Positions 1,191 to 63,119 of a stretch of DNA of 63,631 nucleotides are shown piece by piece. The notes beneath the pieces were generated by a model. That model searched no databases. It was given only the letters and a program-made list of their open reading frames with translations, and was not told the DNA's origin. A program made the translations under genes and the position numbers. Origin of the DNA: Amoebophrya sp. A120. Lineage: Eukaryota > Protista > Dinoflagellata. Positions within the stretch are counted from its first letter, which is position 1. Each line of letters opens with the position of its first letter. Where the stretch lies: contig CAJINV010000014.1 of assembly GCA_905178155.1 (NCBI GenBank), forward strand, positions 310,001 to 373,631, read 5' to 3'.

Positions 1191-4100
1191 CTATTCCGTG
1201 CCGAAACCGAGCACGTATCGAAAGGAAAAATCCCCCCTCCCCATATCGAAAACGAAATTTGTGATGCTGTATTTTTGTCATGCTAGAAGGCCAAGAGCCG
1301 CAGTCGTGGCCTCGTTTGCAGGCAATTTGTAATGCTGTTTCCCGCTCTCAGCTGCCTCCTATCATGCTGAAGGTGCAAGGCTTCCCCAAGCCACCCAGCA
1401 CTACAGTCCGCATCTTTTCCCGTGTAGCATGACAAAGCTGATTTGTGAAGACAAATCTGCATCACAGATTTCCGCTTTGATATGGGAAGGGGGGATTTTT
1501 CCTTTTGATAGCACGTCTTGCACGAACACTCCCGGCTCCAGGACCTCATCCGCAGCGGATATCAAAATGAAAAATCCCCCCTCCCCATCTCGAAAATGAA
1601 ATCTGTGACGCAGACGCCGGATTTGCGCACGCATTGATTTGTCTTGCGGTAGAGGACTGCACGCAGATCGCAAGCCTAGATAGGGGCCTTTTGGTGTAGG
1701 CGCCTAGCATGATAGACGGCTGCCCTGTAGTTCTTACAGCATTACAAATCGCCTGCGTGGCGTGCTGGCAGAGAGCCTGGATGTGCCTTCTAGCAAGACA
1801 GACAGGATATGTGGTCACAAATCTGCATCACAAATTTTCAGAGGATACGTTTCAATATGGGCAGGGGGGAATTTTCCTTGCAATAGCAGAATTGAGAAAG
1901 TCCTGGTCCCCGGTGAGTGCGTGAAGGCACTGCTGCAATTCCTCGTCGGAGAAGTGCTCGCACGCGCCCACTATCAAATGCAAATATCCCTGGGCCACGT
2001 CTGGAAACTTGTGATGCTGGTTGACGAATCAAGAGGACGCCACAAACAACGGCTCAGCATGACAGATTTTTCACTTGCTAGGTGTGGTCAATCTCTATTC
2101 TGCATGAGAAGCTCCTGGGTAGTTTTTGCAGGACAGAAAGATGGCACGGCTTTTGGTTGCCGTGCATGACAGGCTTGACAGTCATGTTAGAAAAGCATGG
2201 CAAACCGGTGTATCTAGTATTTTTCCGGACCAAGAGGACATATTTGCAATGTATACCCACCAGGTGGTGCATCAGCTGTTTCTTGCTGCCCCCGTTCGAA
2301 GCCAGCATCACCGCGTGCTCGAGACTCGCGTTATCAACCTGGTTTATTCGTCATCATCTAATTTCACGCATAGATATTCATATTCTTCCATTATCCCGCG
2401 CTCTTGCAAACAAATTTTTAGCACACCCGCAAGAACTAGTTCGTTAATCGTTGAAGAAGTGGAATTAGTCATCCTCATCTCGTCTCTAGGTGTAGGTCTA
2501 GGTGGTCACTGCTCGAGCTTTTTTTATCTTTTGCACCAACATCTCATCTTTAAGGAAATATTTTACCTGAAAAACAGGCCTGTGATTCACGTAGAGCTGC
2601 ACAAAGTCCTCGAAATTTATGTGGGTGAGGTTCTTTTCCGTGTACAGATGCTTGCCCTTTACTTCGGATATCATGTTCGCGATCTCGGTCTGTGTGGGAA
2701 AGCACCCGAGTGCACACATCAGATAGGGGATTTCCGAGAGGGGTATTGTCCCGTCCAGCTGATACCTTTCCGTCGTTTTCTCACCGTGCGACCGAATTTG
2801 GCAGTAGTAAAAATAGTCCCGGATTTCCGCCAGAAGATCTTCTTCCAGCAAGTTCAGATACGGCTGTATCTTTGCGGAATTGGTCACCGAGCTGCTGCTT
2901 GAGGACTGGCTCACACTGCTGCCGCGCAGCACCGCCAGACTTACCGCCTCTGTGTCGATTTTCCACATGTTCAGCGTCAGGTCCTCCCCCCCGAGAGAAA
3001 ACGCGTATTTGCCCTGTGGGTCCACGGAAATCGCAGAAATCAGGCCGGGGTGCGCTATCACCCCCATCTGTCGGAAAGGGTTCCCGTCGAGTGGTTGCTG
3101 CAGCAGGCCGATTACCTTTAAGACAGGATTTTTTTGTGCTAGTGAATGACTTACATTTATCTCCCAACTGCCCGGTTTAGGGTTTGTTCATGTTCTATAG
3201 GACTTGTACAAGAAGAATTTTGTTGCCTTTCATACAGCACATATTCCCGCACCCGCAGCAAAGGCTACTACTACTTATACTTTTTTACCTTGCCATAATT
3301 CTTTCTACATGGCATTTAGTCGTGCAAAAAGAAGAAACTACACCTTCTCCTTTGTCGCGTACAGTAGGAATTCTTCTGGTGTAGACTCCCCTGGAATCGC
3401 GATCATTTTGCTGACTGGACCGCCGTAGGTCGGCGCGAGACTCGTTCTCCGGCAACTGCGGTTCTTGAACCACGTCTTAAACTTGTACTCCGAGGTCGAC
3501 ACGACCAACCCGCCCCCTACTGATATGGCGTTCTCAACTGTTACATTCTCAACGGTTACATGAATTTGTCATGCAAGAACAGGAATATGGAAAGGGGAAA
3601 GATTGCACGTGTTGCATCACAAATTTGGCACGGATTTAGATGCTGTTTAGCCCTTCGATAATTTGTCATGCGAAGCAGCTTGATTGTCTTGCGGCTCATG
3701 GTCATTTTGCATGACAAATCATGTAACAGCTGAGAATGTAAGGTTTGAGAATCCCATATCTGAGCTCGCGGCTGCCGCTGCTGCTCCTCCCTTCTTGGAC
3801 GTCGCGCCGCTACTGGTTGCGGGGGTTGCGCTCGAGGACTGTTGTTCGATGTCGTTCACCAAATAGGTCAACCCGGTCGGCACCGCCTCTTGCTCGACCA
3901 TCGTGTTGGAGAGTATCGGAAATCCGACGTGCTCTTCCTCGGGGTAATCAGCTGCGAGCGGGCACTCGTACTCGACCAGCTTCCGGTCCTCCGCCAGGGA
4001 GTAGAGTCGTGGCCTCTCGTGGTCGGAGGCAGTGGCGGAGAAGACCAGGCCAACAACCTGCTTCCAGTGGCTGCGGTGCTTGCCCGCCGAGATCCACGCC

Positions 4101-7100
4101 TTGGACTCGCCCGAGCGAGTCAGGTCGTACCGGTACAGCCATACCTGATAAAATGTCTTAATGTTTCTGTTTATGCTGTAGATGTAGTTGTACAACTTCT
4201 ACTTCATACATGTTCATCTACAGCTCGTAACGAAAGGTAAAAATGCGTGGCAATTTTTGTGCAGCAGCGCTGCATTCATGAAGATCATGCATGAACTTGA
4301 TATTTGTTTTGCAAAAATGCTGGTGCATGTGCAACTAACACACGAAAGTAGTACACGAAAGTAGCTTACTCAAAAACTTTTGCTTGATAGCATAAGCGGC
4401 AATAACCTCTTCAGCACGACAAGTACAGCTTTTAAGTATAGTGAAAACTCTGTACCGACTTATCTGCGTGGGCCACGGCCAGGTAATTCGAGCATTTCGA
4501 GAATGCCAGGTGCATTATCCTGTGCAAAAGTAGTATCGCACTCGCTCCGGTCCGTGCAAATTGGAATCATGCGTGACATCAAAGGTGGCCAGGTCTTAGA
4601 ATTATGAGCAAGCAAAAACATTTCATTTTTCCTTCTGAAAATGAAATCTGTGTTCCGCTTTCCACCAAGACAGAATGCGATACAACTTCTGCAACTGCAT
4701 ATGCGTGACGGGCTCTCGATTTTCCCTAAACTGCGCGATTTCGGTGAGTTCGGCGTTCAAAATTCGGATATGAAAGTGCACAACTCCCCCTCCCCCTCAT
4801 TTGTATTGCATGAACCGCAATACAAGCGTCAGCAAGAGTACGGGTTTTGCATGACAAATTTGGACAGGAGTGCAGTGTTATTTGGGCTGCCAGAACTTGT
4901 GATGCAAACAGTCCTAAGAGCCAAAGCGTAAGTTACGTATCTTGCATCACAAATGAGGGGGAGGGGGACTTGTGCACTTTCATATCGGATCTGCCCGTTC
5001 GTGAACCCCACGGCTAAGAGTCCGCTGGCGCTGTATTCCAGAATTTGCGGAAGAATCTTTTCGAAGATTTTCACGGTCTGGAGTGTTCTCGAGTGGTAGT
5101 TCCAGAGGTGAATAAACCCCGAAAGACCCGAAACCGCAACTAAGGGCTCGGACGGGTGGCAACAAAGCCCATGGACGGGAGAGTCGAGACCTGTATTGAT
5201 AAATAGTACAACTTCTCCGTGTGGTCTGGCCGTCGATCGTGGAGACCTTCTTGGGCTTGATGTACTTGTACGTGCCAAGCCCAAGTACAAAGTTACACTT
5301 ACATCCTCGTGCATCAATACGAAAACGAATAAGGTACTTACATCAGTGGCTAAGTACTTAAAAAATCCTACCTTGCAGCACCAATCGTCCCCTCCTTTGC
5401 TGCGGCTCCAGCTCGAAAAACAAATCCGACTTGCAGGCTACTACCAGCGCGCTCGCGGTGGCGACAATGAAATTTGGGCATGAGAACTGGAAGTCCGTGG
5501 ACCCGCTCTGTTCTGTATGCATTAAAAATTACACGTCTGGGCCTGAAATTCTAGAGGTGCAAACTGCACACTATGGATCACACAATCAAATTTTGTCTTT
5601 GTGATGTGATTATCCTTATCCACAGGACACATTGACATTACAACTACAGGAAGTCCTCTGTACTAGTTCAACACAACACGTACTTACACATGGAGCAAAA
5701 TAATAAACCGGTCAGTTTTTGCTACACGGAAACCGAGTGGGAATGTCAATGGCATCTCATGCGGTAAAAAGATACGCATCCATTAAAACGGGATTGCATA
5801 TGCAGGCGTGGGCCATGATACAAAATCTGCACGACAATAAAGAGCGTCAGCATTTGCATTGTTCATCTAGACCCAGATATAATATTTCTTGCATTTGATA
5901 TTCCATCGAGCTGGAGGAAAATCCATTGTTGCTGTCCATTTGAACCGAGGTGGAGTTCGCGAAGTCAAAACTGACGGAGGTGACACTTCCCGCAGACAAA
6001 TCCTCGAACCACGCTTGCAGACGGAATTGGGATATCCACTACAAATATCGATCTAGGTCTGGACGGGCAAGCATGCGCGTGTTTGTCTTGCATTTTTTTC
6101 GTCATGAACCACACAGGCGCTCGGTCTGGAATGCATTGCGCCATCAGTGAAGTAGATGAGCATCACAGATCTTGGGTGGATCACTTCTTAATGCCTGTCA
6201 TTCCGCATGACAGATTCGGATTCGCCATCTGTAGATAGTATCAAAAATGAAACAAGTTTTGGCACTCTGCATTGGTTAAACCCAGATTTTTGTGCGATCC
6301 GATCTATCATCCAGACTTGGCATGATAAGTTGACGCACCACCGCTCTTCCAGACGCAGTTCGACTACATTTGCAATGCGTATGGTAATCGTAGAACCTGA
6401 CTGCGCCGTCGGAGGAACCGGCCACGACGAAGTTGCCAAGGACTTTCAAAACATGCAGGGAAACTTCTGGCGGACACAAGCGCAAAATTTTCACAGCTCG
6501 TCGCTCGTCCGGCCGTGACAAATCGTCCACGATCAACGACAAGTCCCAGATGACAACGTCCCCGTCAAGTGTGGCGGTCGCGGCCTGGGTCGATTCGGGC
6601 AGGAAGATGGTCTGCGTGAAGTCGCCGACTTTCTGCTTGAAGTCCTTTGCGGCGAGCGCCGGGGAGTAGAATTGGAAAGTCATCTTGTCTTTCAGGCTCG
6701 TGTCGTTTTTTCCCCACTGCCAGAAAAACACCCGCCTTCGGCCGTTCGTGGCAATTTCGTGGATGTCCCACCGGTTGAAAATCTGATGGATAGAGATTTT
6801 TTAAATACTAATGTCAATATGGAAGTCAGTGCACAAATGAAGTTTGCGTCGGCCGCTTCCGCGTAGGATGACAAACACAAAAGCCTTCTGAAAAAATAAA
6901 CGAGAACTACTGCACTGTGCGAAATTATTGCTTCCCGTCGCCACAACGTGTCATAACCGTACTGACAAGTAACAAAAAACGATAAAATAAATCACAACCT
7001 TACCACGCACGTCTGCACGTCCTGCGTGCCGATGAGCGCTGTTGCGAGTGGCGCACTTGACTCTGAGGTCCAGTCCCACACGCTTAGATACTGGCGCATC

Positions 7101-8787
7101 TCCTCCCCGTCGTACTCCGGACTGGATAAAGTCGCTAAGTACTTGCTATCCGCTGTCATGTCCAGGGCCACGATCCCGTTTTTGTAAACGCTGTATGGAA
7201 CGATTCTCAAGCACTACATTGCTAGTTGCTACATAAAGATTTGTTCTCGCGTGGATTTGCCTGCAACATGCATCTTCCACACGATCAAGCTACTTGTTCG
7301 CATGACAAGTTCATTTCGAGCAGGAATGGCTAAACAGTATGGGAGTCTACCCTTGTGCCGAATTTCAAACACCAGAGGTGCATCTACATCTTCAGGGCCC
7401 CCCTTTCTTTATTCACTTTTGCTCTTCCTCTTCCTGCATCGCAGACTCATGCAAGACCTGACAGTGTCACGTTTGAGAGCTCCATATGTTGAACATGATC
7501 TTTATGGGCTTCCCCGTTGACCGGTCCCACACGGTGAGCCTGTTTGGTCGAATAACTGATATTCATCTTCTAGGACAGAGTATTTTCATCTCTTCACGCG
7601 GAGGTGAGTTGGGGGAAAAACACAAATACTACTTTTTACTTTGCAGGACCCCGCTACGTAGAAGTTCATCCTCAAATCGTTTTACTTCGTACTGCATGGA
7701 AGAAAAACAGCAACATCAACATAAAAAGAACTATCACATGGAATCCGGTCCGGTATCGGCGGTGACGATCCATTTTTTGTCCGTCGAGAGGTAGCTTGCG
7801 GTGATGGGATTCACGTGTCCCTGCAGTAGCTTCTGCACCCCCGATTGCGTGTCGTAAATGACCCCACTGTTCGCGCTGGGGTAGAAGATTTCGTTTCCGC
7901 CCAAATGGTATGGATAGCAAATATGTCTGGGTCTGGAAACTTGTGATGCAAGGAACAAGGGAATAGTGACTACTGTGTAATGCGCTGCCAAGCATGACAA
8001 GTTTTTCCGTGGTCCTGAGTTGCGTGCTCCGCATGAGAAACTGCGTGTCTGCATGACAGGCGCGAGGAGCTCTTCGCGGACACGCAATACAGACTTCGGA
8101 GTCATGCCAGATTAGCATGACAAATCTCGCAACCTCCCAGACCCAGACATATTTGCATTTGATAAATGGTGTACGCCATTTACGACGTCCTTGCTGAAGC
8201 CGCAGATCTATCCCGTGCAAAAGTATCCATCGCACTCGTATTGCAATCATGCATATACAAATCTTTTTTTGAGGAAAATCCGCATTACAAATTTCATTTC
8301 TCATGCTGAGGAAATTTGTAATGCAATTTGTACTAGTACGATACTTTTGCGGTTCATAAGATCCACTGCAGGCTCAACGCAGGCGACTCGGTCCCGACGA
8401 CGGCCGTCTGCTGCGAGGCAAACTCGGGCTCCGCACCCGGGCCGCTCGACGCAGCAGAGAGCTCTTGCACTTCCTGGGCCGGTATCAAGTGCAAAAGTGT
8501 CTGGGTCGGGAAGAGTGCAGACTTCTTGTCATGCATATTTTGTATGATGATTGATGCCTCTAATGCATGATCTAGCAACACAGATTTTTAGAGGGCTTCC
8601 TAATGCTTATTCCACATGAGAAATGCCCTCTCCGCGTAACACAGACTGGAATCCTGATGCTGGTCATGCAAAAATACAGATTTTTTTGGAATCCAAAGAC
8701 AGCATTACAAGTCGCAATCTTCCAGACCCAGACATTTTTGCAATCCATAGCCGGGTCCGACCCAACCGCCGGGTCCCCGCCGGCCAT
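1191..8787 (-). CDS. CFAP251: Cilia- and flagella-associated protein 251 (WDR66), multi-exon; about 12 introner introns plus several GT-AG introns
   Basis: Exons join in frame: MAGGDPAVGSDPAQEV..ALSLQWICGFSKDVVNGVHHLGGNEIFYPSANSGVIYD..LLQGHVNPIT..WIVTADTG; DGAVRFYDYQFRLQAWFE; GLCCHPSEPLVAV; PLDGNPFRQMGVIAHPG; EIRDYFYYCQIRSHGE..LMCALGCFPT..FVQLYVNHRPVF; ends VQDVLGFGTE* (TAG 1191-1193). These are recognisable WDR66 WD40 and C-terminal EF-hand-like motifs. Confidence 0.9.
1216..1510. mobile_element. Introner family C
   Basis: TIR tatcgaaaggaaaaatccccc..gggggatttttccttttgata; TSD gcacg; restores QDVL|GF. Confidence 0.9.
1560..1885. mobile_element. Introner family C
   Basis: tatcaaaatgaaaaatccccc..gggggaattttccttgcaata; TSD gcgga/gcaga; restores FLNSA|ADE. 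Confidence 0.8.
1972..2255. mobile_element. Introner family A (degenerate)
   Basis: tatcaaatgcaaatat..atatttgcaatgtata; TSD cccac; restores HLVG|ACE. Confidence 0.85.
3524..3758. mobile_element. Introner family D
   Basis: tatggcgttctcaa..ttgagaatcccata; TSD actga/tctga; homologous to 17944-18178. Confidence 0.8.
4516..4701. mobile_element. Introner family B
   Basis: tatcctgtgcaaaag..tgcaactgcata; TSD tgcat/tgcgt; restores VTH|LAFS. Confidence 0.8.
4769..4984. mobile_element. Introner family E
   Basis: tatgaaagtgcacaactccccctcccc..ggggagggggacttgtgcactttcata; TSD tcgga; restores GQIR|ILN. Confidence 0.9.
5516..5900. mobile_element. Introner family A (degenerate)
   Basis: tatgcatt..tctagacccaga..tgcatttgata; TSD ttctg/ttcca; frame restored. 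Confidence 0.65.
6033..6381. mobile_element. Introner family A (degenerate)
   Basis: tatccactacaaatat..atttgcaatgcgta; TSD tggga/tggta; restores FYDYQ|FRL. Confidence 0.7.
7194..7486. mobile_element. Introner family D-like (degenerate)
   Basis: tatggaacgattctcaa..ttgagagctccata; TSD cgctg/tgttg; frame restored. Confidence 0.65.
7909..8164. mobile_element. Introner family A
   Basis: tatggatagcaaatatgtctgggtctgg..ccagacccagacatatttgcatttgata; TSD aatgg. Confidence 0.9.
8209..8358. mobile_element. Introner family B
   Basis: tatcccgtgcaaaagtatc..gatacttttgcggttcata; TSD agatc; restores QWI|CGF. Confidence 0.9.
8483..8749. mobile_element. Introner family A
   Basis: tatcaagtgcaaaagtgtctgggtc..gacccagacatttttgcaatccata; TSD gccgg. 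Confidence 0.9.
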
Positions 8788-9942
8788 GGTGTTCGTTTCT
8801 TTTTAAGAGTCAAAAATTGAATGATGATGGTGTCTTTAATAATACTGTAGCTTTACTTCTTGATGATTGTGTCTACGTTTTCTTCGGTCTGCAGGGTCTA
8901 GTGATGATGTTGCGTCAGGAACAGCCTTCGAACGACTAGTGCATGTACACCATATGCACATCATCAAAGGAAAAGGAGGACAGAAATAAAGCTATTGCTA
9001 CGCTGTCGCGTCGTACGAGCGAACGGCTGTTGCTATGGTGGCGAGCCGAGTGGAACATCAACGACCAGGATATAATTGACGAAGTCGAAATGTTCGCTCA
9101 AACATTCATCTCTCAACCACGATGAGAAGCGTACTAAACACGACTCTCCAAGAATAGCATGGATGAAGACTCATCTCTGTGTCCCTCTAGTTATACTTCT
9201 CGAAATGGATCGTGTGGTAACGATTCCACAGATCGGCATAGCAACGTTGATGAAAATAGACGAAGCTATCAGATGAACTACTACGCCTCCTGCGCGGCGC
9301 AATGACACCGGTCGAACTCGAATGTTGCTCTGTCTGCATAGAAGATGCCACAACAGCACATGCCGATGAGAGAAAGTTGTTGATGATTACGGCCGCGCGA
9401 AGCCGAGCACCCGCAATCTTTGTGACTGTAGTCCTATGTAAATAGTGGTTACGCCAAACCAGCAGAGGAGGCGTGTTCCTCTCGTCTCTAACATGATTTC
9501 ACCAGTTTCTATCTCATCGGTTTCCCGGGTCTCTTTCTTTCCATGCTGACTTTTTGTCGGAGTGCCTGATAGTGTACTTCAACTTCGACCGCGAGCACGA
9601 CCATATTCCAGTACTAGCGTAGCTGCGTAACTTCGTGCGCTTGCGAAACGGAAAAGAAAATACTATAGTACGACAAGACGATCGGACCCATGTGAATGCC
9701 TACCATGCGGCTCCCTGGTGCAGGAACGGCGGGCCGCCCCCCCGGGGGCGGGGATAGATGCTGTGATAGCAGCTCTATACAAAACCAAGAGAATCAATGA
9801 AGTAAATGTAAAAAAGTAAAAACACACAGAAGCTTTTCTAGGTAGCTGTAAAATTGTCTGAACGCCACTCAATTACTTAGATCACTTGTCTTCGTAAAAA
9901 ATAGTACACAGTTCCGAAAAACGTCAACGCCACTCCTTGTCT

Positions 9943-12900
9943 TTATCCTGCTCTCCGCGCCTTGCCCTCCTCGTCCTGCTGCTCCTGAAACAAGACCTGT
10001 GGTGTCTCTGCGTCCCACGCCCATGCAAGTTGTGGCGCTGCAGAATCACTCTCTACTTCCGCTTCAAGATCATCTTGTCCCGGATTTGTTCCTGTTGCTG
10101 CAAATGCGGACTCTGGTGCTCCTGTTCCTTCAGCTTTCGGTGTCGCCTGATTTGTTTTCCCGTCACCAAAATTATTCCGACTGACGACCTCGACGAGCCC
10201 TGTCAGCGTTGCGAGCAGACTCGCACACACGCCCAGGCCGAAGATCATGTACAGAATGGCGACCATATCACAGAAAAAAGTTTTAACGTTTGGCAACGGA
10301 ATTTGTGATGCAGAAATGCATCCCAAAACGTGCCAAAATTTGTCATGCATAGCATGCATGCTAGGCAAAATTTGTCAATGCATTTTTGCAATCTGTGAAA
10401 ACCGTTAACGTTACCACTTTTTCCTGTGATAGACCACGCGGGACAGGTTCGAGCTCGGCGTGTAGTCGCCGAAGCCGATATCGTATAGGAAAAATCCTCC
10501 CTCCCCATATTGAAAATGCATGCGCCTGAAAATTTGTGATGCAGATTTGTGGCCACAAATCCTGTTTGTCTTGCAAGAGCGCAAATCTAGAGAGTCCGCC
10601 GCACTATGTAGGCGGTTTGTGATGCTGTTGGGTCTACAGCATAGGCGTTTGCCATGCCAGGCTCGGCATATGCCTGCAGTTCTGCTCTACTGCAAGACAA
10701 ATGTGATTTGTGTATCCAAATCCAGCATCAGAAGTTTCGTTTTGACATGGGGAGGGGGGATTTTTCCTTTTGATAGCCGACGGCAGAGAGGGTCACGAAG
10801 CAGAAATACAGGGATTCCAAAAACGTCCAACTCGGCTCCAACCGGTGAAACAACGACGCGCCGAAAAGAAGGAAAGCGACGAGAAGGGAAATCAGGAAGA
10901 GGAGCCTGTTGAGAAACGAATTGGTATGATTGATGAAGAGAAATTGATATTAATATGTTCGATTTGACATTTCTGTCATGATAAGCCCCTGCTGGTTGTA
11001 GTGCCACCAACACCTGGAGGATAATCTTCCCGTTCTACTACAGTCTTCTTGTTTCAATACTTGTCAAGCTCACGACATTTAGTACTTGACATCTATGAAG
11101 GCCTAAGTCCTTTGTGCAAGAAGTCTTCGTGGAACAACAAGCAACCCCGATAGTACCTGCTGTTTTTGCTCTGCAAGTTGACGACTCTGGCCTTCGCACC
11201 AACCGAGAACCAGGCTTCGGCGATCAGGAGCAGGTTGAAGGCCATGATGGGCAACCCCACCTATCAAATGCAAAAGTGTCTGAGTCTGGAAGAATGCAAG
11301 ATTTGTTATGCATATTTCTCATGACCCATGATGCCTGTAATGCATGACCTAGCATCGCAGACATTTAGAGGGCTTCCTGGTCATGCAATTTCCGCATGAG
11401 AAATGCCCTGTCCGTGTAGCACAAACTGTACCCCTCTTGCTGGTCATGCAATGCAATTTCGTTTAGAGTCCAAAAACAGCATGACAAGTTGCAATCTTCC
11501 AGACCCAGACACTTTTGCAGCTCATACCACCACCCCGAAGGCGATCGTCAGCATTTGTCCGCCGGAAGTCACCGGATGACTGTGCCCGTAGCCGATTGTG
11601 GTTGCGAGACTGTATCAAATGCAGATGTGCCTGGGTCTGGAAGAGTGCAGAAGTTCGTCATGCAGGTTCTGGATGCCCCAAAAGGTCTGGAATGCGGGTC
11701 TAGCATCACAAAACTTGAGACAGCTTCTCAATGCCTGGTCCGCATGACAGATCGGCTGTTTTGGTTACAAGATATGGGCAACTTCTGCTTTCCATGCATG
11801 AGAGATTTTCGTGTGATCTGAAATGCGCATCACCGGTTGCAACTTCCAGACCCAGACATTTTTGCAGTTGATAGACTGGTGAGGAAGAACAAAGTCCCGC
11901 AAAAGGACCAGTTGTTTTGGTCCACCAGACTGTTTCGCCGGCTGCTCCGGTTTTTATCGCTTGAGCTAGTCTTGGTGGAGGATGAAATTCTTGTTTCTAT
12001 GCCCGTTTGCAAAGCGGAGCCGCGTGTGGAGATGTCATGCACGTTGCTTCCATTTTCGTTTTGTTTACTCATTTTTCTCACAGCGACGTTATTGAAGCCA
12101 TCATGATGATAAGAGTCGTGACCTGGGCGCGCAGGCTGGCGCTCGTCGTGGTGCGAAGGCGATTTTGCTGATTGGTGGTCCTCTTGTTCTGAAGATGTGT
12201 TGATAGCACGTTTGTTCTCAGTTGAATGCTCTTGTGTTATTTCAGTTGCGGGTACGGACGGCATCCTCGAGGAGGAGGGTGGTAAAGATGAAGCGAATTC
12301 TGGTATTATGCGTTGCTGTGCGTCCTCCTGTTCTGCTTCCGTTGCATCGTCGCCTGATGTTGTAGCAGCTTCACCTTCATCGCCTCCTTGCTGCTTTCCA
12401 AATAGTAGCTTCCGCCCCCCGAATCCAAACAGCTTTAGCTCCGCTGTCCGCGTTGCGATGGTGCTGAGTAAATCCGTCTTGCTTTTCACCGCTTTTGCTT
12501 CCGACTTCAGAAGCTCATAGTCATAATCAGCTCCGTTGTTGAAGTAGTCTTGCAAGGTTTCGGAAAATTTTTCTTGGTTTATGAAAGTGCACAACGGCTC
12601 CCGCTCGTTCTGCCGTCATTTGTCGTGCAAAGAAGCAACCTCAGCTCTTGCTTTTTGGCACTGCCTGCATGGCAGGTTCCAGCACCAGCATATCAAACGA
12701 TGCGATGGATAAACTGCATCTTTGCTGGCGCTTCTGTTGCAGTGCTCATGCAGACTGCCAACTGGGGGACAAAGTAGACGGGGAGATGTGCACTGTCATA
12801 TGATTCTTGCAGAAGGACAAGCCTTCGAAGGCCGGGTCGTTGCAGTACTCGAACTAGTATGCATTGTAAAAGTATCTTCGCACGGGCGGCGGGGCAATCG

Positions 12901-13211
12901 TAATTGCAATCATGCGTTACAAGTGTTTTTTCTACCTAAACGTAAAGGCAAATAAGTCCGCATCTTCACAAATTGCTGTTCTCGTCATGCTGAAAAAAAT
13001 TGTCATACGACTTCTGCCGGTACTACGATACTTTTGCACAGGATATGGAGTAGAGTTTTTTCATGGCCTTGTATAGCGCTCGGTTTTGCTCGTAAGTGTC
13101 CAACTCAGCCTGACGCTCCACGAGGGGGAAAACAATCACACCAGCGGTGTAGTACAGGGCGAGAAGAGTGATGGCGAGGCGCCAACGAGACTGCTGCAGA
13201 GGGGAGAGCAT
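9943..13211 (-). CDS. Two-pore-domain (K2P/KCNK-like) potassium channel, multi-exon
   Basis: M1 RLAITLLALYYTAGVIVFPLVE; P1 WSFCGTLFFLTSLATTIGYG; M2 GQMLTIAFGVVGLPIMAFNLLLIA; M3 LLFLISLLVAFLLFGASLF; P2 WTFLESLYFCFVTLSAVGFGDYTP; M4 VVAILYMIFGLGVCASLL. These appear only after removing 6 introners and a GT-AG intron (10906-11013). The 3' end is uncertain. Confidence 0.85.
10266..10431. mobile_element. Introner family F
   Basis: tatcacagaaaaaagt..actttttcctgtgata; TSD gacca; homologous to 15792-15965. Confidence 0.9.
10479..10775. mobile_element. Introner family C
   Basis: tatcgtataggaaaaatcctccc..gggggatttttccttttgata; TSD gccga; splits AVG|FGD. Confidence 0.9.
11262..11526. mobile_element. Introner family A
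   Basis: TIR as family A; TSD ccacc; restores GVVG|LP. Confidence 0.9.
11613..11873. mobile_element. Introner family A
   Basis: TIR as family A; TSD gactg; restores LTSL|ATTIGYG. Confidence 0.9.
12580..12800. mobile_element. Introner family E
   Basis: tatgaaagtgcaca..tgtgcactgtcata; TSD tggtt/tgatt. Confidence 0.8.
12858..13045. mobile_element. Introner family B with eroded TSD
   Basis: tatgcattgtaaaagtatc..gatacttttgcacaggata; flanks actag/tggag; frame restored with the same geometry. Confidence 0.7.
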
Positions 13212-14076
13212 TTTTTAGCAATTAGTATACTGGACAACAAGCAGTGGAATGTGGGCTAGCGCTCCCAGATAAGCATAAGATGCTCAAAGCGTCGCCGATC
13301 TTAATATGCTTACGACGTGCATCTGAACGACGAAACAAGATGTTAAAGCAGGCATCAAGAACGAGACTACCCCTACTTACTTCCATAGCTGGTAACAACA
13401 TAACCAGACGCGGGCTCTCTCTTCACCTCTACTGTGTTTCAACGAGAGTAAGTAATTGGAGGAGGAGGCTGGGCTATGCATCTTCAATGCAGAAACTCAA
13501 CCATTAACTACTACTTCTTCCAATTCGTATTTCATTCTAATCAGTCAAGTACCACAGTGATGCGCATGTCTCTCAACAGCTGCGGTTCCACTACAAGGTC
13601 TGCGCTTGAAGCTGCACAGGAATCCAAAGCCAAACACACAGCAACATAGTTACGAACGTCTGGATTGAATTCACAGAGGCCCGCTGCGTTTCCTTGTTCG
13701 GTTCCGGTTTTCGTTGGAAAAAAAATAGCTTCAAGTAAGTAGATCGTGCCTCTGCCCGGTCAAGAGTTCACACAGTTGAGGGAGCATTCCTTTCATCAGT
13801 GTTCGACGGCATAGTGACCAATGAGCCACCAGTCTGGATTTGACTTTTATTTTCAACTCGTTTTTTCAAGGTCGTAACGTGACATCAATAGGACAAAACC
13901 ATTCTACTTTCGTGAACGAAAAAGGAGCTCTCTGTTCTGGTAGAATACAAACTAACATCAACAAGCAGGCACAAGGCTGTGCATAAGGCTTCAGTGCTGG
14001 TGTTGACTCGTTCCTTTTCCTGTTGTTCCTGTTTATTACAGGAAATCCTCCGTTCTTCCTGCGTTTTAACCAGTTC

Positions 14077-28654: not shown

Positions 28655-28729
28655 GACACAACAAGAGCAGTTGCTTTAGTTGAGAAGTTGAAGTATGCTT
28701 ATACCTCCAGATGTACAAAAATACAACCA

Positions 28730-49133: not shown

Positions 49134-49688
49134 GATGATTCTAAAAGGACACGAAAGTAAGGTATTTCATCTCGAGCTGGACATCTCCACGAGACGAGCG
49201 CGTAGCTGAACTTCTTTTTCCATCTTCTTTCGAGTGTTGAACAGAACATTCGTAGTAAAGTTCCAAAAATCACACGAGTCCATCCCTCCGACGCCTCAGT
49301 ACTGGTTGCTTTTCGTACTTCTTTCGAGATTACTCAGCTTGCTCTTGTTTCCCTGCACGACGACTTTTGCAACTGATCACTGCTTCGAGGGTTCTTGTCG
49401 AGGAGGCCTCCCACATTTTCACTTTAAGAAGACTGCACTAGTTCTTCCTCGATCTTCATGTAAACGTCGGGTAGTAGTTATTTTTCTTTCTGGACACAAT
49501 CAATGGTCGTGCAAGTTGCACACTGCTTTTCGCATAAATGATTTGATGTCTTTCACGTCGACGGCTGTGAGAAGTTGGTGAAAGTAGCGCTGGCTCGCGT
49601 CCTACAGATAGACGTGGTTCTGGTAGTACCTCCAGGTTCTTGTTCCTGTCTTGTTACAAGTGGTTCCCGCGGCGGCCCCACCCGCTTT

Positions 49689-52253
49689 TCATTTGTCCTT
49701 CTTGGTTTCTTTCGCAGTGGCAAATTTCTGAACGGGCAGTCCGATTTCTTCGTCGGCGCTCCGCTTCCCACAACAGGTGGAGATGCAAACCACACAGGAC
49801 GGTATCACCTGCAAAAGCAAAAGCTATTCGTACGCTTTTGCACTTTTATGTATATGCAACCTTTCACAATACTTACTGCCGCACTAATATTAATACAAGT
49901 CTCGCCTTTTTTATCCCTTTCGTCTCGGAATTGCGAAGCTGTACATAATGTGCTTTTGCAGTTGCAATTCATAAACAGGATACAAAATCCAAAAACCGCG
50001 GTCATGACAATGACCAGCACCACCACCGTCGCTGCCGCGTGCTCCTCGGTTGGCCGGGCGCCGAGGATGTCCCGCTGGGCCTTCATCAGAACATCCTTCT
50101 ATGGGGGTGTCAGGATCGAAATCGTCAAAATCGAAAAAGTTGTGATGCACAAAATCGATGCCAGTTAGACCCACAGTTTGTAGTCGGCGCATGACAAATT
50201 CTCCCCATCCTGGAGGCGAATCTGTCATGCGGGTTGGGGCAAAAGGGCTGCCTTCTGTCATGCTAGTCAGCAGCCCAACACTTAACCCTTACCAGGACTA
50301 CAATCCGCCTTCCTTGCATCCTCTGCAATAGGGTCGCTTTTTGCGTAGCATTTTATGCATTACAGATCATTTCAACTTTGACGATTTCAATCCTGACGCT
50401 TCCATACCTTCGCGTATTCCTGTAACGGAAGCAAGTGGCTCGCCATTGTGGCGCTCGCAGAGGCAAACATGACTGCTTATTCTTGTCCTTTTCTATTCCT
50501 TTAGACGATTGGTAGACACGAGAAAAACGACGAAAGCAAAAACTGTTGCCTGCCCCACTCTCGTATAAAATCTTTGTGGATCTGCTGTTGCATGCAGTTT
50601 TTCTTTTTGAGCAATGAATACTTCTCTTTTTTTCATATACTCACTCAGCGTCAGCACTGCCGTGTTACTTTCCGTGCGCACATTTCTTTGCGAAAAAAAC
50701 TGAAGCATGAAAAAAATTCTTCACAAGAAAATGAAAAAAAGCATGGATCAAAAACTTATGCAGCACAAAGATGTGGCGTGCCAGTGAAACGGGTCGACGT
50801 AGTTAAGACTGTTGCAAATCAATGTTGAAGCCGAAAGAAGAAGCACCAGTACGACGACCGAATCGAATGATGTAATCCAGCACCAAAAAAAAAAACCAAC
50901 ATCAATGGCGATACCACGACGCTATTCGGTGCCCGCTTTTGCAGTCGAAGCCTTAGCGTTTGCTTGTTGTAAGTGTACGCCAAATATTAGAAAACTTCTT
51001 TTCTTGAGCAGCTGTGTTTAATCAATGAAATCCGCGGTGCTTCTCAAAAACACAGTCCTGAGCTGTGCGGTACAAAATGATACATCCCGTAAAAATGCTG
51101 CTATGCTTCTTGTTGCAATGAGCAAGTCATTCCTCTTCTTGCAGTTGCGTGGCAAAGTGTAAATTTTGAGGAACAACCTCAAAACAGGGTACTTGGCGAA
51201 CGTTAAAAACAGGGTATCATGCTGAGTCGCGCTCGCAGCCTTATTGCAAGGAACAGTGGAAATGCATTCTTTTCCGTTCTTTCCTTTTACTATTTACAAA
51301 ATAGTGCAACTTTCCAAGTCCTCGCTCGCTCGCTTTTCCATATCAAATGCAAATATGTCTGGGTCTGGAAGATTCTAAACTTGTGATGCTGTCTCCGGAT
51401 TCGAAAAAGATTTGTATTGCATGACCAGAAAGAGAACTCCAGTTTGTGCTCCGCGGAAAGGGCATTTCTCATGCGGAATAGGCATTACGAAGCCCTCTAA
51501 GAATCTGTGATGCTGGGGCATGCATTACAAACATCATGGGCTGTGCAAAATATGCATGACAAACCTGGCAATCTGCCAGACCTAGACATATTTGCAGTTC
51601 ATATTCCATCATGTGCACCATTTTCGCAAATCGCTCCTTTGCCTTCTCTATCCTGTGCAAAAAGTATCGTAGTAGTCGAACTTGCACTACAAATGTTTCC
51701 AAGAGCGAAAATGGAGTTTGTAATGCTGATTTTGCTTAGGAGTGGGATTTGTCATGCATGATCGCAATTACCACCAGTACGATACTTTTGCACAGGATAT
51801 TCTCCTGGTCGTAGCTTTCCCCCTGTTTTTCCTTCTTCTCCACCTCGAGGTCGATGTACTCCGCGACGATTGCCCTCTGCTTCGCGTGGAGGCTTTCGTA
51901 GCGGTATGAGACTACACAACTGGTGCCTCTCTTCGCTCCTGACTTGAAAGGCGGGAACAGCAATAGAAACGCCTACAAATAACATCAACATGGAGCCTCA
52001 GCATGACAAGTTCTTAATTATGCGACGCATGTATCAGTAATAGTTTGGCTGCTTCCGGAATTTGTCATGCAAACACAAACAGCGCCACAAGGACGATTGG
52101 AGTTGGTGTTTTGCACGAGGGAATCGTGCATGAGAAGAACTATCTAGAGGAAGCTGTGCACTCTCATAAGCGTTGCTGGAAGTTCAGATTTGCCTCCTCA
52201 TCCATCGCGGGAAGCGACGGGAGACGGCTACACAGCTCGGAGTAGGCCACCAT
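49689..52253 (-). CDS. Hypothetical protein with C-terminal transmembrane helix, multi-exon
   Basis: In-frame joins FQQR|YESLHAKQ, YDQEK|AKERFAKMVHMME|KRASE and EYAKD|VLMKAQR..VVVLVIVMTAVFGF across introners. Middle exons and start are uncertain. Confidence 0.55.
50100..50406. mobile_element. Introner family H
   Basis: ~37-bp TIR tatgggggtgtcaggatcgaaatcgtcaaa..tttgacgatttcaatcctgacgcttccata; TSD ccttc. Confidence 0.9.
51341..51603. mobile_element. Introner family A
   Basis: TIR as family A; TSD ttcca. Confidence 0.9.
51649..51799. mobile_element. Introner family B
   Basis: tatcctgtgcaaaa..ttttgcacaggata; TSD ttctc. Confidence 0.9.
51905..52168. mobile_element. Introner family E-like
   Basis: tatgagactacaca..tgtgcactctcata; TSD agcgg/agcgt; restores QQRY|ES. 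Confidence 0.75.
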
Positions 52254-56987: not shown

Positions 56988-58206
56988 TTTCGCGAGAGAG
57001 AAGGGTCTGCTGATGAGATGAGATCAGAGATAATGCTCTTACTACTTTTCTTACGAAAAGAGGTCCCTGTGTGCGTGGTTTTTCGATAAGAAGTGGTTGA
57101 GAAGTAGTGGAGGTTATCGCTTTCCTTTTCTCAACATCTAAAACGGAGATCACTTGAAGGGCCATCGCCATTCGGTTTTGAATTACATTTCGCTTCTTTC
57201 ACAGGATCTGGCCGAGGAGGAGCTCGTCGGCTACGAAATAAGCCTTCTGATCTTTGAAAGTTCATCTGTGCCTTTTTCGTCCGCACCGGATAATATGAAT
57301 TTGTGCTGATCTTTAAATTTTGAGGATCGAGCGCAGAGTCGGCAAAATCAAAATAAATCGACATTTGGATCTTTAGATCGAACTCAGGTTACCCTTCGCT
57401 CCTGAAAAAAGGAAGGATCTTGTCTGTGTTAACGTGGAGAACCTTAATATGTGTGATCTTGTCTTTTTTGAACTTCCCTTGACCTTTAGGTTTCGATAAC
57501 GATCTTTATTTCCGTAGAGATCCTGTGCAAACCAACATCCAGTTCTACAATTTTCTCATGCTCGGGCTGCAGTGCTACCATCGATCGAAGCGACAACTGC
57601 AAAATAAGTACCTGCCTGCGTCAGTACACAACGTCACTTCTAAGCTTGGATATAGGCACTACTTCAAAGTGAACAAGGAAGTAGCAGGTCGCCGAGTAAT
57701 ATTCCAACCTGGTGCGTCTTGTCTTTGACGACACGCGCACGAATGAAAAAACCGGATCTAAATCAATCACTCTCGTGATCGTGCACAACATTTTCAGCTC
57801 TCCTCTCCGTCGTGAAGATTGCAATCATACACATTCCAAAGCAGCCCTGTAATTCAAGAGGATTTTAAATTTGATTCGAAATGCTCCTTGGAGACAATAT
57901 CCTGAAACTCAAACATTTTCGATTAGTTGTCCATGTCTCGCACAGACTTACATGACATTACTGTCGCGACTAGAAACTCCCACAGTTGATGAAGTAGCTA
58001 AAATATAATCGCAATACTTGTTGTTCCGGGCGTTGCTGCATTTAGATTTACTGGAGATACACAACAAAGAGCTTCAGTTCGTGCTTCTTCGTCGTGCCTT
58101 ACTTACGATAAAATGGCAGGCACACAGTGACCGTCCTGCGTGATAGCGCAACTATAAATCAGCGCCAGCCTCTAAGGTTCTATCAATTATACGCCCAAGA
58201 TACTTA

Positions 58207-59252: not shown

Positions 59253-62200
59253 TTAAGTCAAAAAGCTGGCTTTTTCCTTTCCTACTTCAGAGACGTCATC
59301 AAAGAAATCAGATTCATACTCGTCGCTTATTTCTCCGGCGCCGTCGTAGTTAGTCGTTCCCAGATCTGCTGACTTCTGTATCGATATCGCCCCGATAGTT
59401 ACACTGGATGTTATGTCTGCAGAGGATGTGCCACTACTTTGTCGCGCTCCATCCCCGAGCTTTGCGGTTTGTTTCGACAGAGAACTAGGATACGTTGAAG
59501 AAGTCATCTTTATTGGCGGTGACCCTTCACCCAGAATTTCCGCATTCGGCAACACTGCAACTCTCGCTATAAATGAAGATGCTGCAGGAGCTCCTGTCAT
59601 GTAGTCTTCTTGCCGTGAAGAAGGTTTTTTTCCCGTTTTTCCCATGGTGTTGTCTTCGAATTTTCTCCCTCGGTCCAACTCCCGCTTGCTCTGGTGCTGC
59701 TTGATGTTCTCCAAAAAGTGAGCGCCAGGGGCAGCAGAGTCGACATTTTGAACCTTTTCTTTACGAGGAAGACCTGGAGTTTCCTCCTCCTCTACTAGAC
59801 TCGGAGACGACGACGACGATGTATCAAATGTAAAAATGTCTGGGTCTGGAAGATTAGAACTTGTCATGCTAAATCTAAATGATTCAAAAATCTGTGTTGC
59901 GTGAGTGCCAAAAGCTGTCCGGTTTTGACCAAGTTGTGAGGGAGTTTCTCATGCAGGAAAGGCATGATAGAGACCTCAGAGAATCTGTCATGCTGGGTCT
60001 CGTATTCCAGACCTCATGGGTCATGGAAAGCCTGCATCACAAATCTTGCATTCTTCCAGACCCAGACATTTTTGCATTTGATACGATGTTGACCAGGCTG
60101 ATTGTTCCCCGATGTCCTCCGAGCTGTAGATCGAAAGAGGGGAGGTAACTGCCGGCTCCGGGATGTGTAAAATGTCTTGCTCGAATTTTTCCTGCAAAAA
60201 CGTCTCGTCTCCTCGACACAGAAGCATATTTCCTGCTCCCTCGGAAGCAGTGACAGTGGTTTTTGGTTTTGGAGATGTTGAAACTGAAGCTGAAACAAGA
60301 ACGCCCGAAGTGGATGCGATTTCGATTTCTGGTGACGACGGTTGCTGCGGCGCGTGTCCCGCCACCTCGTCGGACCGATTGTCTTCGAAGTCGTCGATTT
60401 CCGAATAGTGGTATACTGAAGAGGTTTGTTGTTGTTCCTGCAGGTGGTCCTCACGAGGACCCAGGACGCGTTTTTGTCCCCCGTCGACTGCTTCGTCTCG
60501 TTCTTGGTCCATTTTTCCGGCTGCCATGTTCTTATCCGTCGTCTGCCCATTTGATGTTGTGCCTGCTAGAATTACTATCTCCGCCCCAGTTTGCAGATCA
60601 TCAGTTTCTTGTATTTCCACATGACTTCTTTTGCTCGTCCTGCTGGTCGTCAGACAAAACTCATCCGACGCGGTGGGAATACCGGCCGTTGTTGCTACGT
60701 CGTCCGCGGCAGCAATGTCACTATGGCTGCTACCACCTTTTGGCGTGGTGACTTCTAACACGGCGGCCGACGCTGACAACGTTTCGCTCTCAGGAGCCAG
60801 AGTTGCAAAACGGCCCGGCTCTTCTTCATGTTCTTCAGGAGAAGTGGTAGTGGTACAGATCTGTCCAGAAGCTATTCCTTGTCCGACTGCAGGATGAGGA
60901 CCAGGACCTGCCGTTGCAGCTTCCGCGTCGGTGTAGAAGTTCTCCAGTGGTTTATTGTCTTTCTCAGCAAGAAGATCTCCTTCTTCACTCTCTGCCTTTC
61001 CTACAGCAACATCGTTTTCCGCAATCTGCCTCTTCAGCTCCGCGATGTTCTTTTCGATTTTTTCTATCTCCGCCTGCTCGACCTCCCCTTGTTCTCCGCC
61101 CAAGAAGGATTTTTGGTCTCCCACCTCCAACACCTTTTCGCCTACAAGACCTCCAGACGAGGAACGGAGCATCAAGTCCGCGACGACTTCTCCCGCGATG
61201 TCGTGGTTCGTACTTTTCTGCTGTGATTTCACGGAGTAGGGGGAGGCTGGATCATCTGCGTCGAGGAAATCCAATTCCGGATGTTGTTGAAACAGTCCTG
61301 TTTCCTTGTACAACTCAGCTGGGCCACAGCCGGAGCTGGTCGTTGCTCTCCTGGGCAGTTCGTTTGGCTCCTCGTCCACTGCGTCGAATGCAAGATCGTA
61401 GTCGTCCGCGCCTGCTGTAGCAGAAGAGGAAGTTCGGTTCTGCACCTGCGGTCGTTGTTGTACACTACGACCCGCATAATTATGCAGATCTAGCTCCAAA
61501 GTTGCACCACTGTCACTGTGATGTGCAGACGATTGCACGTACTGTTTTCGGACTTGTTCTGCGGAGTTGTAGGGAGCCGCCCAATTTGAAGAAGGCACAG
61601 CTGAACACTGTTTGTCTTTCTCTCTGAGCGAAGAAGTACTACAACTACCGGGGTCTTCAAGAACTGCAGCAGGCGCGCCTTGGTGCTCAATCGGTGTTAG
61701 ACTCGCACTCTGCGGTCTGCAGGAGCTCCGTTTGATGCGCGAAGAACTGCTGGGGCGTTGAAATGACTTGCCAGAATTCCCTGTAGAAATGTTGTTTGAA
61801 GACAGGAGCGTCGTTGCTGCCGTAGAAGCACCACTACCACCGGTTGTAACGATGAAATTGTAGTGCTCGTGGGTCATCATCGTCGTCGCGTCTTGTCCGT
61901 GTGTAGTTGACCTTGCGTCGAATGTTGACTTTGATGCAGGAACTACATCCGCAGATGAAGCGTTCACAATTTTCTGTCGCGCATTAAACATCTTTTCCGG
62001 CGACTGTGAGACGGAGCGGGAGAAGGCGTTAGTGTTCCCTCCGTCCGGATCGTCATCTTCGAAAATCCCCAGATCCGCCTCGGACAAAACTTCCTCATCT
62101 TCATCAGCATAATTTGTCGAAGAAACATGAGGGACGTTCGTGTCATGCTGGTGTCCTGTACCCCTAAAACTCGGAAAAGTTGACGCAACGCCTCCTCGCG

Positions 62201-63119
62201 GGAGCGCACTGTTAGTACTCTGGAATCCTGTACTAGTTGCCCGTTTGTTAAAATTTCTCACGTCAAGAACCTGCTGGGTGAGCTGTTGCACTTCTTCGGA
62301 GGAGATTTTATTGTTTGTTTTAAGCTGCCGAGAAAGATGAATCTGGTCGCTCCTCGTTGATGCGTCGAAAAAGCGGAAAGCATCTTCTCTTTCCCGTCCA
62401 AGTCCAACACCCGATGAACCTTGCTTCATGATTTCATCCGCTTCCTCCAGATACTCCAGCATGTCGTCTCGTCCCGGCAAATAAAACGCTGATGGATCGT
62501 AGAAAAACGCAGGAGGTGGTCTGGTTTCCATTTGTTCGAATCCATCCCCAGAAGCTGCTAGTTGGTGCGAGGATCCCCGCGTCCCAGCGACGGGCCGCGC
62601 TGATGCGGACTGCGGTCGTGGGCGCTGCGCTGAAGAGGTTCTGTGCAGAGCTGCAATTCCGCCAGATGTGGAAGTCGGTGTTCTAGTTTTGTCCTTGTTC
62701 GCTTCTTATCAAGTACACAAGTGTCTAGGTCTGGAAAAGTGGAACTTGTCATGGTAAATCAGAATCATGCAAAAATCTGTGTTGCATGATGACCAAACAC
62801 TATCCACTTTCGACCAAGCTGAGAGTCCGCAGCTTCTGACGCAGGATAGGCATGATGGAGACCTCGCAGAATATGTCATGCTAGGACCTGCATTCCAAAC
62901 CTCATTGGCCATTCAGAATGTGCATGACTATGACAAGTAGTCTTGCATTCTTCCAGATCCACCAGACATTTTTGCATTTGATACTTCTTCCTCCTTTCGA
63001 ATCGCTCCGGCGGACTGGGCGCGCTGCAAAGTGGTCCGGTTTGTTCTCCTGCCACCCGATAGGACACTTTTTCGCGATCGCTCGTCTATGACCATCACCG
63101 GGTAGGAGCTCTCGGACAC
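59253..63119 (-). CDS. Large acidic low-complexity hypothetical protein; 5' end unresolved
   Basis: ORFs 62928-63119, 60021-62531 (frame open up to ~62700) and 59253-59867 join in frame after removing elements 62707-62983 and 59822-60083. Confidence 0.65.
59822..60083. mobile_element. Introner family A
   Basis: tatcaaatgtaaaaatgtctgggtctggaaga..tcttccagacccagacatttttgcatttgata; TSD cgatg. Confidence 0.92.
62707..62983. mobile_element. Introner family A
   Basis: tatcaagtacacaagtgtct..agacatttttgcatttgata; TSD cttct; restores KEEEA|NK. Confidence 0.85.

Follow-up and report, generated by a model that had tools for sequence, protein, structure and literature searches.

Host genes and inserted elements

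The window analysed here is the whole of a 63,631-nucleotide stretch of Amoebophrya sp. A120 (contig CAJINV010000014.1, positions 310,001 to 373,631). Its host genes all lie on one strand, and two of its exons are 100% identical to annotated A120 proteins, in agreement with the link to Amoebophrya drawn in an earlier sequence-only reading. The host genes delimited are as follows.

1196..8787 (lower bound approximate), minus: CFAP251, a WD40 protein; 12 introners, plus at least 5 introns of the GT-AG type
9900..13420 (bounds approximate), minus: 536-codon open reading frame once spliced; 6 introners
14080..18322, minus: encodes annotated protein P0045; interrupted by 12 introners and a single GT-AG intron

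CFAP251 is colinear with its orthologs at 74% and 70% identity at the protein level, and the gene hosting the element at 10266..10431 encodes two motifs that we take to be potassium-channel-like pore motifs. GT-AG introns and introners coexist in the same host genes, and the 8 GT-AG introns listed in them start with GTA (6) or GTG (2).

Forty-seven candidate elements were assembled from a repeat scan, a TA-anchored scan, family BLAST with inspection, and two later additions. The repeat scan demanded an exact 5-bp direct repeat and end-to-end complementarity without imposing the TA rule, and it returned 32 hits in the window at a score of at least 18 and 21 at a score of at least 26; 19 of these 21 start with TA(T/C) and the other 2 are nested in larger elements. 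Each of three locally shuffled windows yielded 3-4 hits, scoring 22 at most. Candidate 32588-32788 was removed because no open frame spans it. The final set comprises 46 elements spanning 1216 to 62983, where about 40 had been claimed, and the scans recovered all ten duplications listed at that time. Element positions are given below with their target-site duplications (TSDs; one sequence, or two copies separated by a slash) and any constraint on the cut offset, which is defined in the next section.

1216..1510, minus: introner; TSD gcacg/gcacg; 3' end of CFAP251 gene; absent from public annotation
1560..1885, minus: introner; TSD gcgga/gcaga; CFAP251; absent from public annotation
1972..2255, minus: introner; TSD cccac/cccac; CFAP251; absent from public annotation
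3524..3758, minus: introner; TSD actga/tctga; offset at most 4; RNA piece start 3760 and annotation
4516..4701, minus: introner; TSD tgcat/tgcgt; offset at least 2
4769..4984, minus: introner; TSD tcgga
5516..5900, minus: degenerate introner; TSD ttctg/ttcca; offset at least 2
6033..6381, minus: introner; TSD tggga/tggta; offset at least 2; RNA piece start 6382
7194..7486, minus: introner; TSD cgctg/tgttg; offset 3 or 4
7909..8164, minus: introner; TSD aatgg
8209..8358, minus: introner; TSD agatc
8483..8749, minus: introner; TSD gccgg
10266..10431, minus: introner; TSD gacca
10479..10775, minus: introner; TSD gccga
11262..11526, minus: introner; TSD ccacc
11613..11873, minus: introner; TSD gactg
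12580..12800, minus: introner; TSD tggtt/tgatt; offset at least 3; RNA piece end 12574
12858..13045, minus: introner; TSD actag/tggag; a stop codon would arise at offsets 0-2
14425..14602, minus: introner; TSD gcgtt/gcttc; offset at least 3
14697..14870, minus: introner; TSD ggatt/agctt; offset at least 3
14917..15118, minus: introner; TSD gctgg
15271..15470, minus: degenerate introner; TSD tggtg/gaatg; offset at least 3
15564..15724, minus: introner; TSD cagct
15792..15965, minus: introner; TSD gcttc
16001..16229, minus: very degenerate introner, terminal stem predicted to be almost absent; TSD tgagg/ttatg; offset at least 2
16330..16543, minus: introner; TSD cggct/cggcc
16675..16818, minus: introner; TSD ttcgt/ttcgc; RNA piece start 16819
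17336..17600, minus: introner; TSD gtcca; RNA piece end 17330
17668..17823, minus: introner, one end mutated; TSD gatta
17944..18178, minus: introner; TSD gatct/gttct; sole junction excluding offset 3 (annotated protein P0045)
22702..22971, minus: introner; TSD cagat
24803..24948, minus: introner; TSD cggcg/cggtg
26715..27802, minus: 1088-bp element with TAC...GTA ends; TSD tgcgg; 118-nt arms, 92% complementary
35990..36278, minus: introner; TSD gctgc/acttc
36336..36497, minus: introner; TSD agtca/actcg; junction able to separate offset 3 from 4
36553..36804, minus: introner, one end mutated; TSD tgcgt/ggcgt
37574..37779, minus: introner; TSD ctttg/ctttt
44144..44433, minus: young-looking element in a RING-finger gene; TSD tctac; 66-nt arms, 92% complementary
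45379..45540, minus: introner; TSD gaaga/gagga
49803..49973, minus: introner; TSD gacgg/aacag
50100..50406, minus: introner; TSD ccttc; only element reading GT-AG at offset 4
51341..51603, minus: introner; TSD ttcca
51649..51799, minus: introner; TSD ttctc
51905..52168, minus: introner; TSD agcgg/agcgt
59822..60083, minus: introner; TSD cgatg
62707..62983, minus: introner; TSD cttct

Apart from the single 1088-bp outlier the elements are 144-385 bp long, and in 40 of the 46 none of the three transcript frames is free of stops. In transcript orientation they start with TA(T/C) in all 46 cases (TAT 41, TAC 5) and end with (A/G)TA in 44, much as the sequence-only reading had described. The two copies of the 5-bp TSD differ at 0, 1, 2 and 3 positions in 23, 13, 8 and 2 elements respectively, and duplications of 4, 6 or 7 bp are perfect in 0/46 and match at chance level (0.22-0.23). 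The element ends commonly carry a terminal inverted repeat (TIR) core, TAY-N5-GCAAA with at most one substitution (63 of 92 ends, 37 of 46 elements), at odds with the proposal of at least eight unrelated TIR families, and BLAST clustering yields 5 multi-copy clusters (12, 9, 3, 3 and 2 members) with 17 singletons. A subterminal motif, picked by eye and so not independent, has 46 of its 49 hits inside elements against 8.9 expected. Same-family copies occur in both orientations, and the very high DNA read depth on the elements reflects their repetition in the genome.

Removal from RNA and the position of the cut

The elements are present in DNA. Contigs 4955-7943, 13023-15660 and 15696-17363 of DNA run X5 run through complete elements at a depth of 40-42, with 0 differences. 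Runs X1 and X3 are RNA-like, come from one sample, and are presumed to be RNA from the spliced state of their contigs; these spliced contigs are identical to each other and may share a source with the annotation. Four RNA-contig gaps containing 1, 4, 4 and 9 elements skip 468, 1648, 1260 and 1841 nt, and these sums equal exactly the element plus 5.0 nt for each of the 18 elements after counting 5 GT-AG introns (3 with boundaries that agree with the annotation, 2 with boundaries chosen by us). The RNA evidence consists of such contig-length sums and of piece ends rather than single-junction reads, and all 7 element-adjacent piece ends are compatible with offsets 3-4. Of the 135 reads contributed by raw RNA run X8, nearly all fell on a single element, and none gave a junction. 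Consistent with the sums, the annotated A120 proteins P0001 and P0045 lack the element plus 5 nt at 21 of 21 elements. Frame tests, a weak control, are open across 46/46 elements at +5 compared with 39-40 at other lengths, and across 37 compared with 23-24 when 40 codons are required. It is almost certain that the elements leave RNA without a scar, element plus 5 nt being removed, and the earlier claim of scarless loss of the element with one repeat is borne out for the elements covered by the sums and the annotated proteins.

Programmed or somatic excision from DNA, with transcripts made from excised templates, is a highly improbable source of these gaps. The elements are TA-bounded, TIR-flanked and lost without a scar, and thus comparable to the TA-bounded ciliate IESs, and rare excised forms could be missed among the best 15 of 1431 joint-table rows; against this, the DNA contigs hold whole elements at flank depth, and the junction falls within the duplication rather than at the element ends, its polarity being that of the host gene rather than of the element. 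More improbable still is ordinary splicing through nearby cryptic GT-AG sites, or residence in dead genes. Two of the 46 elements have a register reading GT-AG, and one RNA gap was at first 9 nt longer than predicted, so that element 15271-15470 was considered as one converted to a GT-AG intron; the excess was traced to an overlooked element, 14917-15118, and that conversion was rejected. Cryptic sites are largely refuted where the RNA sums are exact (18 elements) and the annotation agrees (21 elements), and the colinearity of CFAP251 with its orthologs and the transcription and splicing of the genes speak against pseudogenes. Neither cryptic GT-AG use nor pseudogene status, both among the outcomes that the sequence-only reading had named as fatal to it, fits these data.

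Offset 4 denotes a cut 1 base before and 4 bases after the inverted-repeat ends (5'-N-TAY...RTA-NNNN-3'). RNA alone permits offset 3 or 4, and the register was read from imperfect duplications, in which mismatched copies place the cut inside the duplication. Of the 12 imperfect duplications in P0001 and P0045, 12 are compatible with offset 4, 11 with offset 3, 10 with offset 5 and 3 with offset 1; when cuts are simulated as independent and uniform, a shared offset arises in 0.8% of runs. The choice of 4 over 3 turns on one junction (17944..18178) in transcript-guided annotation. For the junction at 36336..36497 no transcript was found; a first search for an annotated protein covering it gave 0 hits and a second gave 2 weak, unrelated-looking ones, which were not used. 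The mirror offset 1 is ruled out at 9/9 informative junctions despite the presence of both element orientations, and therefore polarity follows the gene, not the element. We are highly confident that the offset is 3 or 4, and it is probably strictly 4, although cuts may instead be scattered across offsets 3-5.

At offset 4, position +2 is T and +3 is A in 46/46, while +1, -1 and -2 are free, giving 29 end combinations. GT-AG ends occur in 1/46 (2/46 at any offset from 0 to 5) and AT-AC ends in 0/46, which sets the introns apart from the U2-type GT/GC...AG and U12-type classes and sustains their description as transposon-like non-GT-AG introns. The base after the intron is a purine in 24/46, with no preference.

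Origin of the elements and known systems

The terminal inverted repeats, short length, constant TSD length and non-coding nature of the elements are those of MITEs, and they likely arose as non-autonomous TIR DNA transposons. Outside the window, one family has a perfect 5-bp TSD in 92 of 117 full copies and a perfect 6-bp TSD in 0/117; none of these copies exceeds 700 bp with a perfect TSD, and no nested element was seen in three longer copies (481, 631 and 697 bp). Three internal open reading frames of the 1088-bp element at 26715..27802 gave no Pfam domain hit. hAT5 transposons have a 5-bp TSD, and no support was found for hAT5 as the source family. The suggestion that one transposase system made all the elements agrees with their uniform ends, TSD length and mostly shared TIR core, but the transposase itself was neither found in the window nor reported for A120 by Farhat 2021 (PMC7789003).

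That A120 has transposon-derived non-GT-AG introns with 5-bp repeats and TAT starts is already published (Farhat 2021, PMC7789003). Those introners are the same objects in the same organism, MITE-like, with terminal inverted repeats and RNA-supported removal; their direct repeats are given as 3-5 nt (5 bp in the legend to Fig. S19), compared with 5 bp here, and their TAT start with an A-run ~10 nt in agrees with TAY-N5-GCAAA. In contrast to that account, a single register fits the window. The new detail is this probable fixed register inside the duplication, whose polarity matches that of the host genes whichever way round the element lies. Where duplications are perfect, the choices made by aligners may account for the published T+2 motifs. 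Gozashti 2025 (PMC12130899) describes fam38 of A120 as TIR DNA with '5-bp TSD, TA/TA Termini', as in the window, and with integrase-like ORF homology, a candidate mobiliser; there the rule is given for one small family, whereas here one rule holds across families, and among 41 of its 58 A120 rows automated TSD calls range from 2 to 6 with varying mechanisms. IS3EU/GingerRoot elements (PMC10045372) share TA..TA termini, but their TSD is usually 6 bp and membership was not assigned, a perfect 6-bp TSD occurring in neither the window set nor the family outside it.

In Micromonas and Aureococcus introners (PMC11282704) and Fritillaria introns (10.1101/2025.08.15.670264), TIR transposons likewise become introns via target duplication, and these are spliceosomal with fixed end dinucleotides (GT/GC-AG; AG-AC, AG-AT), whereas both ends are free here. 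The nonconventional introns of Euglena, a lineage unrelated to Amoebophrya, are also non-GT-AG and MITE-like, with an inverted motif at fixed asymmetric distance and ordinary introns alongside (Nomura 2025, PMC12501133). Their code, defined by genetic means as 5'-N3CDG...CH'GN5-6|R-3', has a purine after the intron, while the window has TAY/RTA, spacers of 1 and 4 and no purine bias; the Euglena signature does not occur in the window elements, and the likeness is in layout only.

Candidate machineries

There is about an even chance that the machinery is a relaxed major (U2) spliceosome. A TIR element would insert into an exon with a 5-bp TSD and then be removed at the single register. The intron, judging from mismatched duplications, would keep the final base of the upstream copy together with the initial four bases of the downstream one, and therefore one duplication copy would be rebuilt and the protein unchanged. 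The offset-4 register positions T+2/A+3 as in a GTA donor; the terminal TA would take the place of +2/+3 in a U2-type donor whose +1 base had ceased to be read, and the acceptor would be set four bases downstream, without AG, by the RTA motif together with the TIR stem. An almost invariant A seven bases from the 3' end might, speculatively, serve for 2'-5' branching. Because the same signal stands at both element ends, exonic insertion in either orientation would be harmless, which would explain genome-wide spread. We know of no precedent for a spliceosome that works unconstrained at +1, -1 and -2 while the same genes also contain ordinary GT-AG introns. In A120, 83 of 89 spliceosomal proteins plus U2, U4, U5 and U6 were found, minor snRNAs were reported absent, and T stands at +2 in all nine of the most frequent non-canonical motifs in each strain (Farhat 2021, PMC7789003). 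Work on tunicates indicates that the spliceosome can be re-tuned for non-GT-AG introns (10.1101/2025.08.15.670264).

Somewhat short of an even chance, yet substantial, is the possibility that the same elements and register serve a Euglena-like non-spliceosomal route, in which a nuclease/ligase or second machinery reads TAY/RTA at the foot of the TIR stem, cleaves 1 nt ahead of it and 4 nt beyond it, joins the exons and possibly releases a circle. The Euglena code is likewise a short inverted motif with fixed asymmetric spacers, longer at the 3' side, and the Euglena introns, probably MITE-derived, are excised as circles (PMC12501133). Free end dinucleotides and function in both orientations also suit this route, as does predicted folding of most introns end to end, which a structure-reading enzyme could use: in 44 of 45 folded introns at least 13 predicted pairs join the two ends, and in 28 of 45 the terminal TAT is predicted to be paired with a probability of at least 0.7 (fold z-scores are based on 15 rough shuffles). 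Rfam, run on the whole window at the gathering threshold, gave 0 matches to catalogued structured RNAs. U1 snRNA was not detected in A120, but U1 proteins are present (Farhat 2021, PMC7789003). Further against such a route, no matching enzyme has been identified, T+2/A+3 are placed exactly as in A120's own GTA donors, and the element at 16001 is removed with almost no predicted terminal stem. Elements 5516, 14917, 15271 and 16001 are all still removed, although the prediction is that they have lost the TAT:ATA pairing of their termini. The structure-guided, possibly non-spliceosomal removal suggested from sequence is weakened by these cases and by the donor-like T+2/A+3, and the relaxed spliceosome is at least as likely.

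On balance we favour the view that A120 has a second exact splicing code, 5'-N-TAY...RTA-NNNN-3', which reads transposon ends instead of GT/AG, silences every exonic insertion of one TA-ended, 5-bp-TSD lineage in either orientation, and converges on the Euglena code. It would be executed by undescribed machinery, either a spliceosome ignoring both terminal dinucleotides or a new nuclease-ligase, and ambiguous alignment within the duplication would account for the published 'variable' sites. More than 40,000 non-GT-AG introns are removed in A120, and a fixed register sharpens tests of how, predicting the ends of excised RNA, the location of a lariat branch or circle junction, and the positions worth mutating. 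It also provides a simple annotation rule: removal of the element plus 5 nt recovers 3 introns missing from the public CFAP251 model and regains its conserved C-terminus.

Introners of the window and their loss from RNA

Two exons match, at 100% identity, proteins that carry the name Amoebophrya sp. A120; CFAP251 is among them. The elements are real and already described, and since A120 introners were reported by Farhat et al. (PMC7789003) and Gozashti et al. 2025 (PMC12130899) the finding as originally noted is already known. Among 41 of the 58 A120 rows of the latter dataset, family 38 is given with '5-bp TSD, TA/TA Termini' and integrase-like homology; strains AT5 and Kv use GT-AG according to the available text of two reviews and the Kv genome paper.

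A scan demanding only complementary ends flanked by a mismatch-free 5-bp direct repeat, with no TA start required, gave 21 matches at a score of at least 26; 19 of these start TA(T/C) and the remaining two lie inside larger elements, while three shuffled controls never scored above 22. Added scans and inspection raised the candidates to 47, of which one was discarded. The 46 retained elements span 1216-62983 (144-385 bp, and one of 1088 bp; 11,532 bp in total), bearing out the sequence-only reading of transposon-like elements starting TA(T/C). The target duplication is 5 bp (perfect in 23/46, mean match 0.85, compared with 0.22-0.23 for lengths of 4, 6 and 7 bp). Density is uneven, with 30 elements within the first 18.2 kb and few or none in very long exons (>1200 codons), a Misato-like gene and a ribosomal L7Ae/L30e-family gene (19013-32473, 53041-55302, 56661-57023).

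Scarless loss of elements together with one repeat, as proposed from sequence, is supported by spliced contigs of X1 and X3, two runs from one sample presumed to be RNA, in which four gaps containing 18 elements and five GT-AG introns skip exactly the element plus 5.0 nt per element in both runs. Public A120 proteins, annotated with transcript guidance, lack the same length at 21/21 elements, and a third host gene is a 536-codon open reading frame with +5 and at most 309 codons with +0, +3, +4 or +6. Excision from DNA is unlikely, as the DNA run X5 crosses whole elements with zero differences. Splicing at cryptic GT-AG sites is also unlikely. Just 2/46 elements are readable as GT-AG at any offset; the related claim that no GT/AG is needed at the ends stands.

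The analysis's own gene model, built from sequence alone, agrees with the public CFAP251 protein, P0001, across residues 1-901. At 1216-2335 P0001 reads into element 1972-2255 and ends in a non-homologous tail; excising three introners missed by the annotation yields a C-terminus resembling two close orthologs. A 120-nt GT-AG intron at 14246-14365 is kept in the annotated protein P0045, the product of another host gene, and is absent from the RNA-like contigs. About 128 raw reads of RNA run X8 fall on one element segment alone (11478-11516), their loose ends passing the element end into another flank, as from an unspliced copy at another locus or strain.

Position of the cut and the route of removal

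Where duplication copies differ, the spliced sequence reveals the source copy of each base, and k counts the bases that the upstream copy contributes. The ends of RNA pieces set k≤4 (element 3524), k≥3 (12580), k≥2 (6033) and k≥1 (16675), and at 12858 k≤2 leads to a stop codon. At imperfect junctions in annotated proteins k=4 fits 12/12, k=3 11/12, k=5 10/12 and k=1 3/12, k=3 being excluded by junction 17944 alone; simulations with independent uniform cuts shared a register in 0.8% of cases. Because k=4 fits all of these junctions, the intron is likely N-TAY...RTA-NNNN. The mirror value of 1 is excluded at 9/9 informative junctions, where about half would be expected if element orientation set polarity (chance ~0.002), which points to cutting as a step on the transcript, although all host genes in the window face one direction (minus strand). 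Copies of one family occur in both orientations relative to host genes. No statement of a fixed register was found in the available text of the literature searched on A120 introners and related introns; the remark 'four nucleotides upstream' in Farhat et al. (PMC7789003) partly anticipates it. The register is one useful refinement, and renders the question of removal testable.

With k=4, T at +2 and A at +3 are invariant (46/46), and +1, -2 and -1 are unconstrained; ordinary introns of the window begin GTA or GTG. An end-to-end fold is predicted for most introns. The terminal TAT:ATA pair is predicted to be lost in 7/45 folded introns, four of which lie within the exact RNA sums, so the short motif probably outweighs a perfect stem in importance. 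The numbers are very small for two further asymmetries: the terminal TA motif is broken in two cases, each time at the transcript 3' end, and +4 has four T-to-C changes with no counterpart at -7, where A is retained in 45/46.

Two routes of removal merit consideration. We give an even chance to a relaxed U2 spliceosome, which would excise introners in the register N-TAY...RTA-NNNN, on the grounds that the A120 spliceosome is near-complete in the available account of Farhat et al. (PMC7789003) and that tunicates are invoked as precedent for such relaxation. A non-spliceosomal, Euglena-like route is a serious candidate at slightly less than even chances, because the A120 layout mirrors the code N3CDG...CH'GN5-6 of Euglena nonconventional introns, which leave as circles according to the portion available of PMC12501133.

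Families, transposon origin and other repeats

BLAST places the elements in clusters of 12, 9, 3, 3 and 2, plus 17 singletons. The original term 'unrelated' overstates the differences between families, since 37/46 have TAY-N5-GCAAA in common, on at least one end. A single mobilising lineage is plausible but unproven. IS3EU/GingerRoot transposons resemble the A120 elements in their TA..TA ends, but usually make 6-bp rather than 5-bp duplications in the text available (PMC10045372), and the elements are therefore not assigned to that group. Three open reading frames inside the 1088-bp element matched no Pfam family; its middle (27135-27367) holds nested palindromes built from three copies, inverted or direct, of a ~30-nt motif.

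Beyond the window, a TIR pattern search of a metagenome collection returned 149 matches in 138 stretches. Nearest-copy similarity has a median of 87% and a maximum of 95%. The far end is present in 117/149; among these the 5-bp duplication is perfect in 92, a perfect 6-bp duplication occurs in none, and no target base preference is obvious. Three longer copies of the commonest family (L026, L027 and L077; 481, 631 and 697 bp) are each flanked by a perfect 5-bp duplication, and none was found to contain a nested element.

Two other repeats lie in the window:
48015-49136: two ~50-bp direct repeat copies, 1070 bp apart, around GC-rich DNA that contains short repeats of its own; this may be a further mobile element, and one open reading frame within it has no Pfam match
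63508-63631: GC-rich hairpin reaching the window end, with 61-nt arms that are 85% complementary
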